A stretch of DNA of 64,000 nt from Parcubacteria group bacterium Greene0416_39 (lineage in GTDB: Bacteria; Patescibacteriota; Minisyncoccia; Minisyncoccales; UBA10102). The stretch spans positions 40,458-104,457 of the forward strand of contig VMEU01000001.1 of NCBI GenBank assembly GCA_007375675.1, read 5' to 3'. The notes below the pieces were generated by a model that was not told the DNA's origin, made no database searches, and was given only the letters and a program-made list of their open reading frames with translations. The translations under genes were made by a program, and so were the position numbers. Position 1 is the first letter of the stretch. Each line of letters opens with the position of its first letter. This document shows, piece after piece, positions 3,133 through 51,901 of the stretch.

Positions 3133-3465
3133 TTAGTATAGTTTTCCTCCAAGGGGAATATCCTTATCAGGAGCAATTAAGATACATTCGTGGTTTTCGT
3201 CGGGAATCCCAAGCGTCAAAACCTCAGATACCTCAGGCCCAATCTGTTTTGGTGGGAAGTTTACAACGCACAAAACTAATTTCCCTTTTAGTTGGTCTTT
3301 GGAGTAATTCTGTGACAATTGAGCACAGGATTTTTTGATCCCAGTTTCAGGCCCCAAATCGATTTTGAGTTTGTAGGTTGGCTTGCGTGCTTCTGGGAAA
3401 TCTTCTACCTGCACAATTTTTCCCACCCTGATATCCAGTTTTTGAAAATCTTCGTACGTTGCCAT
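3133..3465 (-). CDS. csaA: tRNA-binding protein CsaA/YgjH family (EMAP-like tRNA-binding domain)
   Basis: 110 aa; LDIRVGKIVQVEDFPEARKPTYKLKIDLG...LVLCVVNFPPKQIG is typical of the tRNA-binding domain. Confidence 0.75.
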   Translation of the reverse strand: MATYEDFQKLDIRVGKIVQVEDFPEARKPTYKLKIDLGPETGIKKSCAQLSQNYSKDQLKGKLVLCVVNFPPKQIGPEVSEVLTLGIPDENHECILIAPDKDIPLGGKLY

Positions 3466-3467
3466 GG

Positions 3468-3538
3468 AGCGGGCGAGGGGAGTTGAACCCCTGTCTTGAG
3501 ATTGGAAATCTCAGGTAATACCGTTATACGACGCCCGC
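3468..3538 (-). tRNA. tRNA-Gly(TCC)
   Basis: Cloverleaf read on the minus strand: acceptor GCGGGCG/CGCCCGC; anticodon stem TGAGA/TCTCA with loop TTTCCAA; T-loop GGTTCAACTCC; CCA encoded. Confidence 0.8.
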
Positions 3539-3547
3539 CTTCGCCTG

Positions 3548-3618
3548 TCGGGGTGCTCGGATTCGAACCGAGATTAAATCCTCCCAAAGGACTCGTGCTG
3601 CCGTTGCACTACACCCCG
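3548..3618 (-). tRNA. tRNA-Pro(TGG)
   Basis: Acceptor CGGGGTG/CACCCCG; D-stem GTGC/GCAC; anticodon stem AGTCC/GGATT, loop TTTGGGA; T-arm CTCGG-TTCGAAT-CCGAG. Confidence 0.8.
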
Positions 3619-3631
3619 ATATTTCTTTATT

Positions 3632-3746
3632 GTAGTCGCCTTTGGCAAACCCCGGGGAAACCTTTCTTATGCCGTCCCGCTACGCGGGACATGGCAATCA
3701 AGGTAGGTTTCCCGCCAAAACTCAAGCAGTTGAGTTTTGGCCCCAA
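3632..3746 (+). ncRNA. Conserved tRNA-associated structured element, copy A (unknown function)
   Basis: Shares architecture and sequence with 14664-14771 and 15758-15867: a 5' tetraloop hairpin; CCCGGGGAAACCT...AGGTTTCCCG long-range stem enclosing a TTATGCC/GGCA(T)A stem and a GTCCC/GGGAC hairpin; then CAAAA + CTCAAGCAGTTGAGTTTT terminator-like hairpin. Confidence 0.55.
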
Positions 3747-3775
3747 AGCACTCGTACTGCCGGTATACGACACCC
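3739..3775 (-). pseudogene. Partial duplicate of the tRNA-Pro 5' half (acceptor + D-arm + 5' anticodon stem/loop only)
   Basis: Minus-strand read GGGGTGTCGTATACCGGCAGTACGAGTGCTTTGGGG matches the first 36 nt of the adjacent tRNA-Pro at about 30/36 positions. No T-arm or 3' acceptor follows. Confidence 0.55.
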
Positions 3776-3894
3776 CGTAAAATCACCCCGTGGTGGAAAA
3801 ATAGGAACGAAGTGACGTAAGAAACCTAAGGTTTCTTAAGCTGGGGGTCGGGGTGATTTTTCTTTTATATCATTTTCTGTGGTATAATTCAAGA

Positions 3895-14322: not shown

Positions 14323-14615
14323 GATTACGCATAGGGACATCAAAAGAATACCTAAAAAAAGTTCCCCACACGCTTGGAGAACACGCATTTTTGTTCACCC
14401 TGTTCCTTATTGCCTTGGCGGTAGGGATCAGCGCGCTCGTGTTTTTCTTCTCTGTTCTTTCCAATAAACCGAGAGAGACTGCAACGCAGACAGAGTCAGT
14501 AGAACTTCGCAAAGACGTTTTTGAACATATTCTCAAAGAACGAAGCCTCCAAGACCAGAAGGTACAAGACTCCAAGACCGTGCTTCCCAAAGACATCTTC
14601 CGCCTCAACAGGTAA
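14319..14615 (+). CDS. Small membrane protein at the pilP position (hypothetical)
   Basis: 98 aa, single TM helix; the paralogous position in cluster 2 is 57224-57517. Confidence 0.45.
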   Translation: MRLRIGTSKEYLKKVPHTLGEHAFLFTLFLIALAVGISALVFFFSVLSNKPRETATQTESVELRKDVFEHILKERSLQDQKVQDSKTVLPKDIFRLNR

Positions 14616-14663
14616 CATTGACCAGAGAGGAGATTGGGGGTATAACAATCATGTATCAAAGGT

Positions 14664-14771
14664 AGTTCACCTTCGGTGAACCCTGGGGCATTTCTTAACG
14701 GTTCGCCGTTCCGCTCTAAGCGGAACATGGCTCACCTGAAATGCCCGACAAAACACAAGCAGTTGTGTTTT
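14664..14771 (+). ncRNA. Conserved tRNA-associated structured element, copy B, directly upstream of tRNA-Arg(TCT)
   Basis: GTTCACC-TTCG-GGTGAAC hairpin; GGGCATTT...AAATGCCC stem enclosing GTTCCG-CTCTAAG-CGGAAC; then CAAAACACAAGCAGTTGTGTTTTG hairpin abutting the tRNA. Confidence 0.55.
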
Positions 14772-14843
14772 GTCTCCATAGCTCAATGGATAGAGCGGCT
14801 CTCTTCTAAAGAGCAAATCGAGGTCCGACTCCTCGTGGAGACA
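14772..14843 (+). tRNA. tRNA-Arg(TCT)
   Basis: Acceptor GTCTCCA/TGGAGAC; anticodon stem GCTCT/AGAGC, loop CTTCTAA; T-stem CGAGG/CCTCG. Confidence 0.8.
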
Positions 14844-14854
14844 CAAAAGGATAT

Positions 14855-14928
14855 GGTGGGCGTAGCTTAGCGGCTAAAGCGTCGCTCTGTGGCAGCGAAG
14901 ATCGCGGGTTCGAATCCCGTCGCTCACC
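14855..14928 (+). tRNA. tRNA-His(GTG) with encoded G-1
   Basis: G-1 + acceptor GTGGGCG/CGCTCAC; anticodon stem TCGCT/AGCGA, loop CTGTGGC; T-loop GGTTCGAATCC; discriminator C. Confidence 0.8.
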
Positions 14929-14936
14929 CCAAAATT

Positions 14937-15461
14937 ATGGGTCAAACATTTATCACAATTACAGAAGCTGCGCGGCTTACGGGGCAAAGCGATGCTGCCA
15001 TTATGCGCGTGATCAAAGACTGCCTTCAGCAGCCCGGAGTCAACCCCGAGGAGATTCTTAGAAAAGAGCCGAGAGGCAATGGCTTTCTTTACGTTGTGAA
15101 CAAGGAAGTGTTGCTCAGAGAGCTTGGAGGAACAAAGGAAGAGCAACAGCCTGCTCAAGAAACGAAAGAAGCCCCAGAGCTCAAGCAAACCCCTTCGACA
15201 GGTCGTTCAGACTCTGAAGAGTCCTCAGACTCGAAGAGTTCAGGGCAAGCAAGCTCAGGGCAAGCGCTTCTTGAGGCGAAAAATGAAATGATTGCAATGC
15301 TGCAGAAGGTAGTTGATACACAAGGAGGGCAGATTGAGGACTTGTCGGGAAAGGTCGACCAGCTCATTGAGCGCGACCGCGAGACAAACATTCTCCTCAA
15401 AACCCTTCAGGATAAACTTTTTCTTCTTTCCGGCAAAGGCGAGAACAAAAAGCACGCCTAA
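14937..15461 (+). CDS. HTH DNA-binding protein with acidic/coiled-coil C-terminal region (hypothetical)
   Basis: MGQTFITITEAARLTGQSDAAIMRVIKD is helix-turn-helix-like; sits directly 3' of tRNA-His. Confidence 0.5.
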   Translation: MGQTFITITEAARLTGQSDAAIMRVIKDCLQQPGVNPEEILRKEPRGNGFLYVVNKEVLLRELGGTKEEQQPAQETKEAPELKQTPSTGRSDSEESSDSKSSGQASSGQALLEAKNEMIAMLQKVVDTQGGQIEDLSGKVDQLIERDRETNILLKTLQDKLFLLSGKGENKKHA

Positions 15462-15477
15462 GAAAAATTACTTCTCT

Positions 15478-15636
15478 GGATCTTCCAAATCAATTCCCTC
15501 GTCGTCTTCGTCAGAGTTGGATTTTTCTGTTTCAACACTCTCGTCGTCAGATTCTTCTTCAGGTTCCTCTGTTATCTCGTTTTCATCTTCTGGGTTAGCA
15601 AAAGAGTCTATAAGTTTTTCGTATGCCATTGTTGAG
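15478..15636 (-). CDS. Small, highly acidic protein (52 aa), hypothetical
   Basis: Minus-strand ATG...TAA ORF encoding MAYEKLIDSFANPEDENEITEEPEEESDDESVETEKSNSDEDDEGIDLEDPEK; below the ORF-track length cut-off. Confidence 0.3.
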
Positions 15637-15757
15637 AGATAGGTCTTTTAAAACGACCTTTTAAATTACGAAGTTCATTATAGATAGCCAAGAACCCTTG
15701 TCAACCCCGTTGTCCACAGGCTTGCAAAAGACCGAATTTTTTGCTACATTTACAAGG

Positions 15758-15867
15758 TATCCGCCTTCGGCGGACCCAGGGAAACCTTCGTTATGCCGTC
15801 CCTCGCTAAGCTCGGGACATGGCATATCAAGGTAGGTTTCCCGACAAAAGCAAAGCAGTTTGCTTTT
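15758..15867 (+). ncRNA. Conserved tRNA-associated structured element, copy C, directly upstream of tRNA-Arg(CCT)
   Basis: CCGCC-TTCG-GGCGG hairpin; GGGAAACCT...AGGTTTCCC stem; GTCCC...GGGAC hairpin; CAAAAGCAAAGCAGTTTGCTTTTG hairpin abutting the tRNA. Confidence 0.55.
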
Positions 15868-15939
15868 GTCCCCGTAGCTCAACGGATAGAGTAGCTCACT
15901 CCTAACGAGCAGATACAGGTCCAATTCCTGTCGGGGACA
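15868..15939 (+). tRNA. tRNA-Arg(CCT)
   Basis: Acceptor GTCCCCG/CGGGGAC; anticodon loop CTCCTAA; T-stem ACAGG/CCTGT. Confidence 0.75.
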
Positions 15940-15949
15940 CAAAAAACGA

Positions 15950-16024
15950 GGGCCCATAGCTTAGAGGAAAAGCGTTAGTATGGCATACTAAAGATCGTGG
16001 GTTCGAGTCCCACTGGGTCCACCA
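15950..16024 (+). tRNA. tRNA-Ala(GGC)
   Basis: Acceptor GGGCCCA/TGGGTCC (G-U pair); anticodon stem TTAGT/ACTAA, loop ATGGCAT; T-arm GTGGG-TTCGAGT-CCCAC; CCA encoded. Confidence 0.75.
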
Positions 16025-16026
16025 GA

Positions 16027-16112
16027 GGAGGGTTGGCAGAACGGCTATTGCGTCCGCCCCGAAAGCGGATGGGAGCAATCCCTTGCAGGTTCAAATCCTG
16101 CACCCTCCGCCA
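16027..16112 (+). tRNA. tRNA-Ser(CGA), class II with long variable arm
   Basis: Acceptor GGAGGGT/ACCCTCC; anticodon stem TCCGC/GCGGA, loop CCCGAAA (C at position 33); variable hairpin GGGAGCAATCCC; CCA encoded. Confidence 0.7.
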
Positions 16113-16161
16113 ATACAGTTGATTTTTGGGGATTTTCGTGATACTCTACTAAAGACAAACT

Positions 16162-16527
16162 ATGTCTTTTTTTAGTACAGAAAAGAAAAAAACAGAAACT
16201 CCAAAAGAAACGCAAAAGCTTGTTGAGGAGCTGGGGAAGAGAGTTCAAGAACTTCAAAACGATTTGGCAGGATACAAAAAGGCAATGAAAAGCGCGGTGA
16301 CGAAAGTGGGAATCGTCAGGTTTAATCCGTTCCACGAAATAGGGTCTGACCAGAGTTTTTCCTTGGCGTGCTTAGACCAGGAGAAGAACGGATTTGTTCT
16401 CACGAGCCACTATCTGAAAGATCATAATCGCGTATACGCAAAGCCCTTGAAAGAAGGCAAGTCGGAGTATTCACTGTCTGAAGAAGAAAAGGAAGCAATA
16501 GCGAAAGCAACGACCAATGACCAATAA
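16162..16527 (+). CDS. DUF4446-like small protein (hypothetical)
   Basis: 121 aa; VGIVRFNPFHEIGSDQSFSLACLDQEKNGFVLTS matches the DUF4446 core as I recall it. Confidence 0.45.
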   Translation: MSFFSTEKKKTETPKETQKLVEELGKRVQELQNDLAGYKKAMKSAVTKVGIVRFNPFHEIGSDQSFSLACLDQEKNGFVLTSHYLKDHNRVYAKPLKEGKSEYSLSEEEKEAIAKATTNDQ

Positions 16528-25969: not shown

Positions 25970-26251
25970 TGCCGCGGGGGTGAATTGAACACCCGACGCC
26001 AGCCTCTTCCAAAGGCCGTTTTGGACTATCTCATCTCCCTTGAAAGGGAGTTGGGCGCTATTTGCAGGATTATTGTTGGGACTCACCCGCTAGTCTCTAC
26101 ACCTTCCGAGAAACTACTACCCTTCTCGGCTTGGCTCGGGATTGATCGTCCCAGACGATTTTTCCCCGAATTCACCCAATTTTTCAATCCGCCTTACGAC
26201 GGAAAGCCCCAAAGAGTTTAGGGCTGCGCTCTACCACTGAGCTACCGCGGC
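25970..26251 (-). tRNA. tRNA-Phe(GAA) interrupted by a 210-nt group I intron (exons 26220-26251 and 25970-26009)
   Basis: 5' exon GCCGCGGTAGCTCAGTGGTAGAGCGCAGCCCT; 3' exon GAAGAGGCTGGCGTCGGGTGTTCAATTCACCCCCGCGGCA. Joined, the anticodon loop is CTGAAGA. Confidence 0.8.
26010..26219 (-). mobile_element. Group I self-splicing intron in the tRNA-Phe anticodon loop (between nt 33 and 34)
   Basis: P1 pairs exon AGCCCU with intron GGGGCU, with U.G at the 5' splice site. P/Q/R/S-like elements AATTCGGGGAAA, AATCCCGAGC, GTGTAGAGACTAGCG, GAGATAGTCC. Terminal omega-G. No ORF inside. Confidence 0.8.
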
Positions 26252-26261
26252 ATCTGACAGT

Positions 26262-26960
26262 TTATGCAAAGAGCTGCTTTATGCCCTCTATCCATCCCAT
26301 AATCCGGTGGAAATTCTGTGTATCTCCTACACTAATCTGAATTGTCCCAAATGGCAAGCGGTTGTAAGGTCTTTTCCCCAAGCTCGATTTACTAATTCCG
26401 TAGTAAACTTTCTCAAATTGATTTTTAGGTAACCCAGTAATCTCTTGCCAATATTTTAATGCTGTTTGTTCGTTAGTATGTTTAAATATTCTTACGCCTG
26501 CTCTTACTCTAGATTCGGGTATTTTTAAGATGTTCTTTAAAAACTCTAGGAATACTTTAACCAGTATAGGGTCTGTATTACTTAAACTAATCTTATGGTA
26601 GGTACGCTCTTTTCCATTTTTGATTATTGGCTTTTTATATCCTTCTCCCCAGTAAAGCGCAGTTCCTATTAATAAAAGTTCTCTTTGCGACAGTTTTTTG
26701 ATTACTAACTTTGCATCTTTGCGTATTTGTTTTGCTTGCTGTTGGGCTAAGTGAGTTTGAAGTTGATTTTTCTTTATTAATCCTCTTAGAGATCCTTCGT
26801 GAACCCGCCGCTGAATTCTCGCATGAGCTTTTTCTGATAAAACAAGTCCGGTAAACCAGCCCGAAAGCGTAGCTTTCGGAATTCCAAGCTTGGTTGTAAT
26901 CTCGTTATAGCTATACCCCTGAAGACGTAGCGAGAGCGCCTTTTCCTTATCACTGCGCAT
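26262..26960 (-). CDS. HTH + LAGLIDADG-like protein; possible free-standing homing endonuclease
   Basis: 232 aa; N-terminal HTH YSYNEITTKLGIPKATLSGWF; LLLIGTALYWGEGYK resembles a LAGLIDADG motif. Lies 10 nt upstream of, and co-oriented with, the intron-containing tRNA-Phe. Confidence 0.4.
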   Translation of the reverse strand: MRSDKEKALSLRLQGYSYNEITTKLGIPKATLSGWFTGLVLSEKAHARIQRRVHEGSLRGLIKKNQLQTHLAQQQAKQIRKDAKLVIKKLSQRELLLIGTALYWGEGYKKPIIKNGKERTYHKISLSNTDPILVKVFLEFLKNILKIPESRVRAGVRIFKHTNEQTALKYWQEITGLPKNQFEKVYYGISKSSLGKRPYNRLPFGTIQISVGDTQNFHRIMGWIEGIKQLFA

Positions 26961-51617: not shown

Positions 51618-51829
51618 TGTCCCCATGTGGAATCGAACCACAATTTTAGCCTTCGCCCCGCACCGTTTCTGTGCGTCCACGAGGAATCGAACCTCGATTT
51701 CAGCCTTCGCAGGGCTGCGCTCTATCCGTTGAGCTATGAACGCATAAAGGTGCGGGGCAGGCAGGGCTATTTACCCCGTACCGAGCTTTGCTCTGGTACG
51801 GGGCGCTCTATCCGTTGAGCTATGGGGAC
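51618..51829 (-). tRNA. Split/outer tRNA-like gene: acceptor + D-arm + 5' anticodon stem (51797-51829) and 3' anticodon stem + T-arm + acceptor (51618-51660) separated by ~140 nt that contain a complete tRNA
   Basis: 5' part GTCCCCATAGCTCAACGGATAGAGCGCCCCG; 3' part CGGGGCGAAGGCTAAAATTGTGGTTCGATTCCACATGGGGACA. Acceptor halves GTCCCCA/TGGGGAC and anticodon-stem halves CCCCG/CGGGG are perfectly complementary. The 5' part resembles the tRNA-Arg genes at 14772 and 15868. Confidence 0.45.
51672..51743 (-). tRNA. tRNA-Arg(GCG) (unusual anticodon), nested inside the split tRNA-like gene
   Basis: Acceptor GCGTTCA/TGGACGC; D-arm GCTC-AACGGATA-GAGC; anticodon stem CAGCC/GGCTG, loop CTGCGAA; T-arm CGAGG-TTCGATT-CCTCG. 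Confidence 0.65.
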
Positions 51830-51901
51830 GTACATTTTTTATAGCATACAACGCGACCCGTTGGTATAGGCAAGTTTGTATGCTTGTGATAGTATGGAGG
51901 T

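Follow-up and report, generated by a model that had tools for sequence, protein, structure and literature searches.

The stretch of DNA analysed here, referred to as the window, comprises 64,000 nucleotides from the Parcubacteria group bacterium Greene0416_39 (contig VMEU01000001.1, positions 40,458 to 104,457 of the forward strand), and it carries three copies, A, B and C, of a small hairpin-forming element next to tRNA genes (Table 1). A first-pass annotation, made from the letters alone, had reported three structured copies beside tRNA genes; all three lie where it placed them, and this was borne out by pattern search, covariance model and folding. The 22-base pattern of the 3' module, CCCGNCAAAANNNAAGCAGTTNNNTTTTG, matched the window at the three copies alone (0 expected from 100 shuffles), a scan for hairpins with a GCAG loop returned the same three sites, each with a 12-bp stem, and a covariance model trained on 26 family members scored them at 88-89 bits (E ~1e-25), the next-best match reaching 9 bits. 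The copies can be aligned end to end with a mean column identity of 72%, flanks included, and the fold of each is much more stable than expected from shuffled sequence (z = -6.2 to -7.4), the reverse strand doing equally well. With regard to strand assignment, the minus-strand folding energy was slightly better, and counts of G-U against A-C mismatches are confounded by the stem ends. Rfam 15 gave no match to the element in the window at the gathering threshold, returning only tRNAs and one group I intron, and at E values up to 10 over positions 14500-16200 nothing credible overlapped the elements.

Copies B and C run directly into tRNA genes. Since ARAGORN and Rfam agree on where the two tRNA-Arg genes begin, the G of the element's terminal TTTTG is tRNA position +1. 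The T-run had been described as lying immediately before these genes, but the tRNA is not merely adjoining: the last three paired bases of the terminal hairpin are tRNA nucleotides 1-3. The hairpin itself, put at 9-10 bp in the first-pass annotation, is in fact 12 bp long, extending through a G-N-C/G-N'-C segment, and the loops of the 5' hairpin, described as TTCG/TTTG tetraloops, are triloops, given the context GCC-UUC-GGC, rather than true cUUCGg tetraloops. Promoter-like sequences precede both copies. That of copy B is absent from a consensus-scan list since the last base of its -10 hexamer is C, and an orthologous TTGACC-17-TATAAT lies upstream of the element in locus L119. (L numbers denote the loci compared, from Patescibacteria metagenome-assembled genomes (MAGs) and metagenomes.) Because the promoter lies upstream of the element in both, copy B probably forms the transcribed 5' leader of an operon of tRNA-Arg and tRNA-His, and RNase P, given its universal role, would be expected to remove this leader.

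Copy A has a different setting, between a complete, divergently oriented tRNA-Pro gene and an antisense tRNA-Pro 5' half. The latter had been taken for a duplicate of the neighbouring gene. The antisense half is real, but it matches that gene at only ~29 of 36-39 positions, and is thus a diverged, foreign-looking paralogue and not a fresh duplicate; it is identical at 38 of 39 positions to its counterpart in L059/L109/L121. A gene 3' of copy A has a product that matches, at 100% identity, one from Parcubacteria group bacterium Greene0714_21.

Table 1. Positions of the three element copies and of associated features in the window.
Feature	Position	Strand	Basis and remarks
Copy A, full element	3632-3745	+	covariance model 88.7 bits
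Copy A, 5' hairpin P1	3635-3649	+	sequence and folding; then CCCC 3650-3653
Copy A, hairpin A domain	3654-3713	+	outer stem GGGGAAACCT/AGGTTTCCC
Copy A, hairpin B	3714-3741	+	GCCAAAACTCAA-GCAG-TTGAGTTTTGGC; then CCCA 3742-3745
tRNA-Pro(tgg), complete	3547-3618	-	ARAGORN/Rfam; divergent from copy A, 13 nt from its 5' end
tRNA-Pro(UGG) 5' half, antisense fragment	3739-3777	-	acceptor strand to anticodon loop; joined to copy A via shared CCCCAAAG
Copy B	14661-14774	+	covariance model 89.2 bits
Copy B, P1	14665-14681	+	sequence and folding; then CCCT
Copy B, hairpin A domain	14685-14746	+	outer stem GGGGCATTTC/GAAATGCCC
Copy B, hairpin B	14747-14774	+	GACAAAACACAA-GCAG-TTGTGTTTTGTC; final three bases are tRNA-Arg(tct) nt 1-3
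Promoter-like TTGACC-17 nt-TATAAC, upstream of copy B	14618-14646	+	read from sequence
tRNA-Arg(tct)	14772-14844	+	ARAGORN, Rfam; tRNA-His next
Copy C	15757-15870	+	covariance model 87.8 bits
Copy C, P1	15760-15774	+	sequence and folding; then CCCA
Copy C, hairpin A domain	15779-15842	+	outer stem GGGAAACCT/AGGTTTCCC
Copy C, hairpin B	15843-15870	+	GACAAAAGCAAA-GCAG-TTTGCTTTTGTC; overlaps tRNA-Arg(cct) nt 1-3
Promoter-like TTGCAA-17 nt-TACATT, upstream of copy C	15722-15750	+	putative, read from sequence
tRNA-Arg(cct)	15868-15940	+	ARAGORN, Rfam; tRNA-Ala, tRNA-Ser next

Architecture and distribution of the family

Loci were recruited with a 3' pattern that fixes much of the terminal hairpin, and the 3' module was found at 22 genome loci (Patescibacteria MAGs, several of them Wildermuthbacteria) and in 95 metagenome stretches. 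After removal of duplicates and chance matches there remained ~70 distinct units, all built to one common plan; copies were also present in three loci that had been fetched through their proteins and not by the pattern (L119, L121 and L125). One MAG holds seven copies on its small contigs, and the density in the stretches examined is about one copy per 10-20 kb. Among viral contigs the sole match was a chance match within coding sequence, giving no sign of a phage-borne element.

The element spans 70-110 nt with its two hairpins. The core unit, of 70-95 nt, consists of hairpin A followed without a linker by hairpin B, and it may be preceded by an optional 5' module that comes in two forms, a short hairpin like that of the window copies and one of 15 bp. 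The unit is bounded by runs of C, with CCCN before it and CCC(C/A) after it; CCC is present at 78-90% of 5' junctions and 78-98% of 3' junctions, copies away from tRNAs included. The outer stem of hairpin A surrounds a small hairpin, after which comes a conserved AU bulge (ACAUGG or ACAUCG); hairpin B has the 12-bp consensus G-N-C-AAAA-NNN-AA[GCAG]TT-N'N'N'-TTTT-G-N'-C. Conserved unpaired positions are few, namely CCC, the AU bulge and the GCAG loop, and the apical loops vary.

Compensatory changes had been noted in the first-pass annotation among three copies, and they hold on a larger scale. The outer stem of hairpin A occurs in 28 distinct variants, all fully compensated, and at least 8 of its 9 pairs are formed in 50 of 70 real units as opposed to 136 of 1400 controls in which 3' strands were swapped between unlike elements. 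The four variable pairs of stem B are compensatory in all 26 sequences, with none broken, and at the position-2 pair N/N' all four Watson-Crick combinations occur. In two stand-alone copies the flanks also form an extra outer helix, CAGTTTCCCCCG...CGGGGGAAACTG in L004 and GAAATCCCCCCG...CGGGGAGATTTC in L090, the differences between the two being compensatory.

At ~21 distinct copies (~30%) a co-oriented tRNA begins at the G of TTTTG. The tRNAs at this +1 junction are tRNA-Arg of all anticodons, tRNA-Lys and tRNA-Glu, all of which start GNCCCC. The exact junction and the complementary N/N' pair can be explained in two ways, either by a need, at insertion, for identity between the target and the last 6-7 nt of the element (GNCCCCA) or by selection for an intact 12-bp hairpin at the RNase P site; in L119 hairpin B keeps its 12 bp even though only tRNA +1 falls inside the stem, and this shifted register favours a constraint on length. 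Other arrangements occur as well. A complete tRNA lies antisense, 9 nt 3' of the element, in six or seven copies; antisense tRNA 5' parts form the 3' flank in copy A of the window, L059/L109, L035, L044 and L092; and in L008 the 3' flank is the sense 3' part of a tRNA-Gly, starting within the anticodon loop. About 70% of the copies have no adjoining tRNA and take any orientation to neighbouring genes; those outside the arrangements above lie in ordinary intergenic DNA beside housekeeping genes. The apical loop of copy B had been likened to an anticodon loop, a resemblance that dissolves on comparison, L012 having the same UCUAA loop before tRNA-Arg(tcg); the loops do not track the downstream anticodon. 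A role of hairpin B as intrinsic terminator was also considered and is unlikely, given its paired U-run, its AT-rich stem and its absence from the terminator-scan list.

Copies gained, lost, nested and carried in frame into genes

That the family is mobile in the evolutionary sense is shown by gain and loss of copies, by nesting, by foreign flanks and by in-frame copies within genes. The unit of L031 is 97% identical to copy A from CCCGGGGAAACC (CCCGGGG) to TTTTGGCCCC, and the flanks of the two are unrelated. Across 308 pairwise comparisons of copies, homology on the 3' side mostly ends at +4 to +8 after TTTT, that is, after GNCCCC(A), while the 5' limit varies with the modules that the two copies have in common. 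A 75-nt unit is nested within hairpin A of another element, just 5' of a CCCC run (L045/L112/L118), and head-to-tail chains with CCCN between the units occur in L002, L041 and L068. The chain in L041 has three units, one with a degenerate hairpin B, and lies directly before dnaA, ~330 nt upstream of its start; a naive open reading frame (ORF) call runs through the units and lengthens DnaA by ~107 aa.

A comparison of occupied with empty sites, proposed in the first-pass annotation, showed that orthologous sites differ between the window and relatives. The tRNA-Glu(ttc) site is empty in the window, with a 13-nt spacer from the -10 box to +1, and is filled by a type I unit in L014/L074 and by a type III unit with another hairpin B loop (AAC in place of AAGCAGTT) in L021. 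The tRNA-Arg(gcg) site, also empty in the window, holds differing subtypes in L097, L021 and L029 and a decayed unit in L013/L081. Site A is filled in the window and in L109/L121, and empty in L119 and L123.

Two further observations concern the surroundings of site A. L123, the closest relative found (kinase gene 80% identical in nucleotides), has another tRNA-Gly sequence, no element and no Pro fragment, and its tRNA-Pro/tRNA-Gly pair is inverted relative to the histidine kinase gene (L123 1489-1648 and L124 442-601 versus window 3465-3621); a local inversion or replacement has occurred at this tRNA site. In L109 (752-1491, equivalent to L121 8972-9637) ~740 nt lie between tRNA-Gly and tRNA-Pro, with a 221-aa ORF that has an N-terminal helix-turn-helix-like segment; this insertion is lacking in the window, where the two tRNA genes are 8 nt apart.

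Five sense-oriented, in-frame insertions were found in four genes, encoding a Mur ligase (L003), UvrC (L017, two insertions, one of which includes the 5' hairpin), a class I aminoacyl-tRNA synthetase (L064) and an RluA-family pseudouridine synthase (L083). In each case hairpin B is read as (P)PKAKQ(F/L)AFGP, after which the protein runs into its conserved C-terminal domain. Because all five keep the frame without a stop codon, we argue that they are translated and not spliced out. The 24-aa RluA insert is present in two proteins and lacking in eight orthologues that are 79-89% identical; at the DNA level, in an alignment of a filled with an empty gene, 72 nt are added between AAGGTTC and CCAGGACTC. 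The partners available for aligning the Mur ligase insert are paralogues and not orthologues, and the comparison is uninformative. Among 50 units the PPKAKQFAFGP frame is open in 40, as against ~50% for other frames. A search of 1.84 billion proteins with the 31-aa translation of copy A returned only chance matches (eukaryote-like WPxSLQQLSFG repeat proteins) and one spurious 44-aa ORF.

Competing explanations and a possible mechanism

Taken together, we consider it probable (roughly 75%) that copies A, B and C belong to a family of structured, non-autonomous and mobile (selfish) DNA repeats of Parcubacteria. The first-pass annotation had listed a miniature tRNA-targeting mobile element among its candidates; a mobile element is indeed favoured, but one that is not restricted to tRNA genes, given the intergenic, nested and in-frame intragenic copies.

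Several observations weigh against this reading. Hairpin B is 100% identical over 33 nt among genomes otherwise ~70% identical, which is as compatible with strong functional constraint as with recent spread. The apparent conservation of this hairpin is in part built in, because the recruiting pattern fixes much of it. A hairpin of exactly 12 bp that reaches into tRNA nucleotides 1-3, and in which N and N' are complementary without exception, has the look of selection. Each of the four lineages examined (the window, L038, L051 and L119) has the element at site B (pilO - element - tRNA-Arg(tct) - tRNA-His), and some copies could have been retained for a function. Over the segment that runs from the stem A 3' strand to the end of the antisense tRNA-Pro half, the window and L109/L121 are identical at 84 of 85 positions, their functional tRNA-Pro genes differing by ~30%, and the arrangement of a complete tRNA, an element and a fragment of the same type of tRNA recurs, which a single simple insertion does not explain. 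Within 3.5 kb of the ~70 copies (~120 loci; the search did not extend to whole genomes) there is no recurrent transposase, integrase or reverse transcriptase; what recurs nearby is confined to housekeeping genes and local synteny. Terminal inverted repeats are absent, the 5' end (AAGGTAG + P1, or CCCNGGG) not being an inverted copy of the 3' end (TTTTGNCCCC), and a target-site duplication is unproven: the one RluA filled/empty pair is compatible with a 3-nt CCC duplication, but its genomes are only ~85% identical.

Alternatively, the element could be primarily a cis-acting RNA with a function, serving as structured 5' leader in operons of tRNA-Arg, -Lys and -Glu. Hairpin B would there sequester tRNA nucleotides 1-3 together with the U-run, and would in this way control RNase P cleavage, folding of the tRNA or transcriptional read-through, the dispersed copies being secondary. 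We regard this as the leading rival and yet unlikely. It would account for the co-orientation of the element with the tRNA and its end exactly at +1 in ~21 copies, for the promoter upstream of the element, for the occupancy of site B in four lineages, for the 12 bp that hairpin B retains in L119 despite the shifted tRNA register, and for the compensatory outer closing helices around the stand-alone copies in L004 and L090. Against it stand the ~70% of copies that are not beside a tRNA and take any orientation to neighbouring genes, the in-frame units within coding genes, and the orthologous tRNA-Glu(ttc) and tRNA-Arg(gcg) genes of the window, which have no element, together with the decayed copy in L013. 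An AT-rich hairpin with a paired U-run, absent from the terminator-scan list, would also make a poor intrinsic terminator. The defining features of riboswitch and T-box leaders, a conserved core that binds a ligand or tRNA and an alternative terminator/antiterminator, are likewise absent: few unpaired positions are conserved, the loops ignore the anticodon, and there is no Rfam match. The suggestion of a tRNA-operon leader describes copies B and C, which have promoter-like sequences upstream, but a leader function is not indispensable, because orthologous tRNA genes do without the element.

A second alternative, which we hold to be improbable, sees in the element the footprint, or one end, of an integrative element that targets tRNA genes by means of a site-specific recombinase, the partial tRNA-Pro being an attachment-site duplication. 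The recurrence of a complete tRNA, an element and a same-type fragment (Pro in the window, Gly in L008, and also L044/L092) would suit it, as would junctions in the anticodon loop or D loop, the classical integrase crossover regions, and the large serine recombinase gene found after tRNA-His in L119. No recombinase recurs near the copies in the ~120 loci or adjoins the three copies of the window, however, and only 110-160 nt separate tRNA and fragment (~120 nt in the window), which sets these loci apart from integrase-driven tRNA islands. The resemblance to an attachment site pointed out in the first-pass annotation is therefore weak, with no recurring integrase and a Pro half that has diverged from its neighbour (29 of 36-39) and differs less from lineage to lineage than the functional tRNA-Pro does. 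The intact gene agrees in both halves with the native tRNA-Pro found in the relative L123. Most copies have no tRNA fragment at all, and the intragenic and nested copies are left unexplained. The recombinase gene of L119 (20294-20975, minus strand; Resolvase, Recombinase and Zn_ribbon_recom domains) lies directly after tRNA-Arg(tct)/tRNA-His, a place that in the window is taken by an uncharacterised 174-aa protein (no Pfam hit) and a small acidic ORF, followed by copy C; the 3' side of tRNA-His may be an island integration site.

Least probable of all is an independent family of trans-acting small RNA genes, for example a protein sponge acting via repeated AAGCAG motifs and lying beside tRNA genes by chance: the strongly negative folding z-scores, the several copies per genome and the recurrence of AAGCAG (present in the hairpin B loop, again in the long 5' hairpin that type III elements have, and also before some copies) would agree with it, but all the evidence against a cis-acting leader applies here too, the hairpin B loop of L021 is AAC, no terminator follows the element, the tRNA begins inside hairpin B, and the intragenic copies appear to be read in frame.

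If the elements are mobile repeats, their distribution could have arisen as follows. An enzyme supplied in trans would recognise hairpin B and the C-run, and units would be inserted at sites containing CCC, possibly with duplication of CCC. Sites equal to the last 6-7 nt of the element (GNCCCCA, the 5' acceptor strand of tRNA-Arg, -Lys and -Glu) would be favoured or best tolerated, and insertion there would place the element flush against tRNA +1. In this position the promoter of the tRNA operon would transcribe the element as a long folded 5' leader, which RNase P would discard, and the cost of such copies would be low because the whole element belongs to the discarded leader. Copies would persist where they are least harmful; within genes, the survivors would be those with a length that is a multiple of three and an open PPKAKQFAFGP frame. 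Insertions into CCCA runs of tRNA genes would leave tRNA fragments behind, such as the antisense tRNA-Pro half beside copy A.

A more specific version, which we put forward as a rather unlikely conjecture, is that hairpin B with its G-N-C/G-N'-C extension serves as a guide module, an RNA or single-stranded DNA recognising GNCCCC tRNA starts and other CCC sites by pairing or short identity, after which an enzyme would insert the element. Were this true, it would constitute a new homing mechanism aimed at tRNA 5' ends, with possible domestication of the element as an RNase P processing gate in the tRNA-Arg, -Lys and -Glu operons of the candidate phyla radiation (CPR).

Known repeat families and other features of the loci

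The closest analogues are Rickettsia palindromic elements, together with REP and BOX repeats. Rickettsia palindromic elements (RPE) are short, hairpin-forming and without a known transposase, and occur between genes as well as in frame inside unrelated housekeeping genes, to which they add a peptide segment (PMC10969869). With these ~100-150-bp elements the present family shares a non-autonomous nature and in-frame copies, here in genes for Mur ligase, UvrC, an aminoacyl-tRNA synthetase and RluA. The likeness is one of behaviour; our element is found in Parcubacteria/CPR, has two adjacent hairpins, C-run junctions and exchangeable 5' modules, and differs further in its exact tRNA +1 junction and its tandem and nested arrays.

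Repetitive extragenic palindromes (REP) and bacterial interspersed mosaic elements, associated with RAYT (Y1) transposases, are likewise small structured repeats dispersed between genes, and RAYT-like Y1_Tnp genes exist in these genomes. REP sequences, however, are imperfect palindromes of 20-40 nt that flank the RAYT gene, whereas the element is 70-110 nt long, has two hairpins, is also intragenic and does not form inverted pairs. We considered RAYT/Y1 transposases as its mobiliser and rejected them, since such genes have palindromes of their own on either side, which differ from the element. These RAYT-like genes of the Y1_Tnp type (236 aa, motif HYHLI) are present in L121/L109 and L039/L104, with palindrome GCGTAGGAGGGTCAGACCCTCCTACGC on both sides of the gene in L121 (7690-7730 and 8460-8500) and ATGTTAGACCTCGGAGGTCTAACAT in L039 (7051-7089 and 7798-7862), a classical REP-RAYT arrangement in Parcubacteria CPR contigs.

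The exchangeable modules, multiple copies, co-transcription with neighbours and stable RNA folds recall the pneumococcal BOX, Neisseria Correia/NEMIS and ERIC repeats, and in being small, non-coding, multi-copy and polymorphic for presence or absence the element resembles miniature inverted-repeat transposable elements. Classical members of that group and Correia elements have terminal inverted repeats, which this one does not; no parent insertion sequence was found within 3.5 kb, and the target preference is for C-runs and tRNA 5' ends. Palindrome-associated transposable elements (PATEs) derived from IS200/IS605 lack terminal inverted repeats, carry subterminal hairpins at both ends and have a strand-specific orientation, and our element may be compared with them in all three respects. 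In IS608 a short sequence beside the hairpin foot base-pairs with the cleavage site, which the G-N-C/G-N'-C extension may be taken to recall; the ends of IS608 are alike, whereas in our element the 5' hairpin has no sequence relation to hairpin B, and no TnpA/TnpB gene with these ends was found in the ~120 loci. Ty3 and Dictyostelium TRE5, finally, are autonomous retroelements guided by Pol III factors, for which tRNA gene 5' regions are safe landing sites (PMC6101501). The element likewise uses the tRNA 5' region, but it has no reverse transcriptase and its junction is at the first nucleotide of the mature tRNA. Resemblances to integron attC sites and signal recognition particle RNA were considered and dropped since the defining motifs do not fit.

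What distinguishes the family is thus its two-hairpin core bracketed by C-runs, its exchangeable 5' modules, its tandem and nested arrays and its exact tRNA 5' junction. Genomes of CPR/Patescibacteria, at ~1 Mb, are regarded as highly streamlined, and yet a repeat family is found even here, inside essential genes and directly before tRNA genes. As selfish DNA within protein genes it would be a second, independent case after Rickettsia. Bacterial elements normally target tRNA 3' ends, and the exact +1 junction with its complementary N/N' pair suggests an unusual rule of target recognition. For annotation, the element accounts for small ORFs that are spurious, for unusual insertions in conserved proteins and for pseudo-fragments of tRNA genes, and its filled and empty sites are a possible marker of strain-level evolution. 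No description of the family was found in the searchable literature on CPR tRNA-linked RNAs or repeats.

Two other tRNA genes of the window are interrupted. A tRNA gene missed by ARAGORN (25975-26300, minus strand), just upstream of tRNA-Gly(gcc), holds the Rfam group I intron (26000-26229, 64.6 bits) between a 5' exon, GCCGCGGTAGCTCAGTGGTAGAGCGCAGCCCT, and a 3' exon that ends in GGGTGTTCAATTCACCCCCGCGGCA. This fits the frequent occurrence of group I introns in Patescibacteria tRNA genes (PMC13011429), a report that covers such introns only and has nothing on the element. A tRNA-Arg(GCG) gene at 51625-51830 (minus strand) is interrupted twice, after the D arm by a 30-nt hairpin (CCCCGTACC...GGTACGGGG) plus TAAA, and in the anticodon loop by a 10-bp helix (GCCCCGCACC/GGTGCGGGGC) that encloses a complete second tRNA-Arg(gcg) at 51671-51743. 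In L097 the orthologous tRNA is uninterrupted, and the three "exons" of the outer gene are identical to it. The outer gene could be a pseudogene that was disrupted and acquired a replacement tRNA cassette, or the inserts could represent a type of intervening sequence in bacterial tRNA genes that has gone unrecognised.

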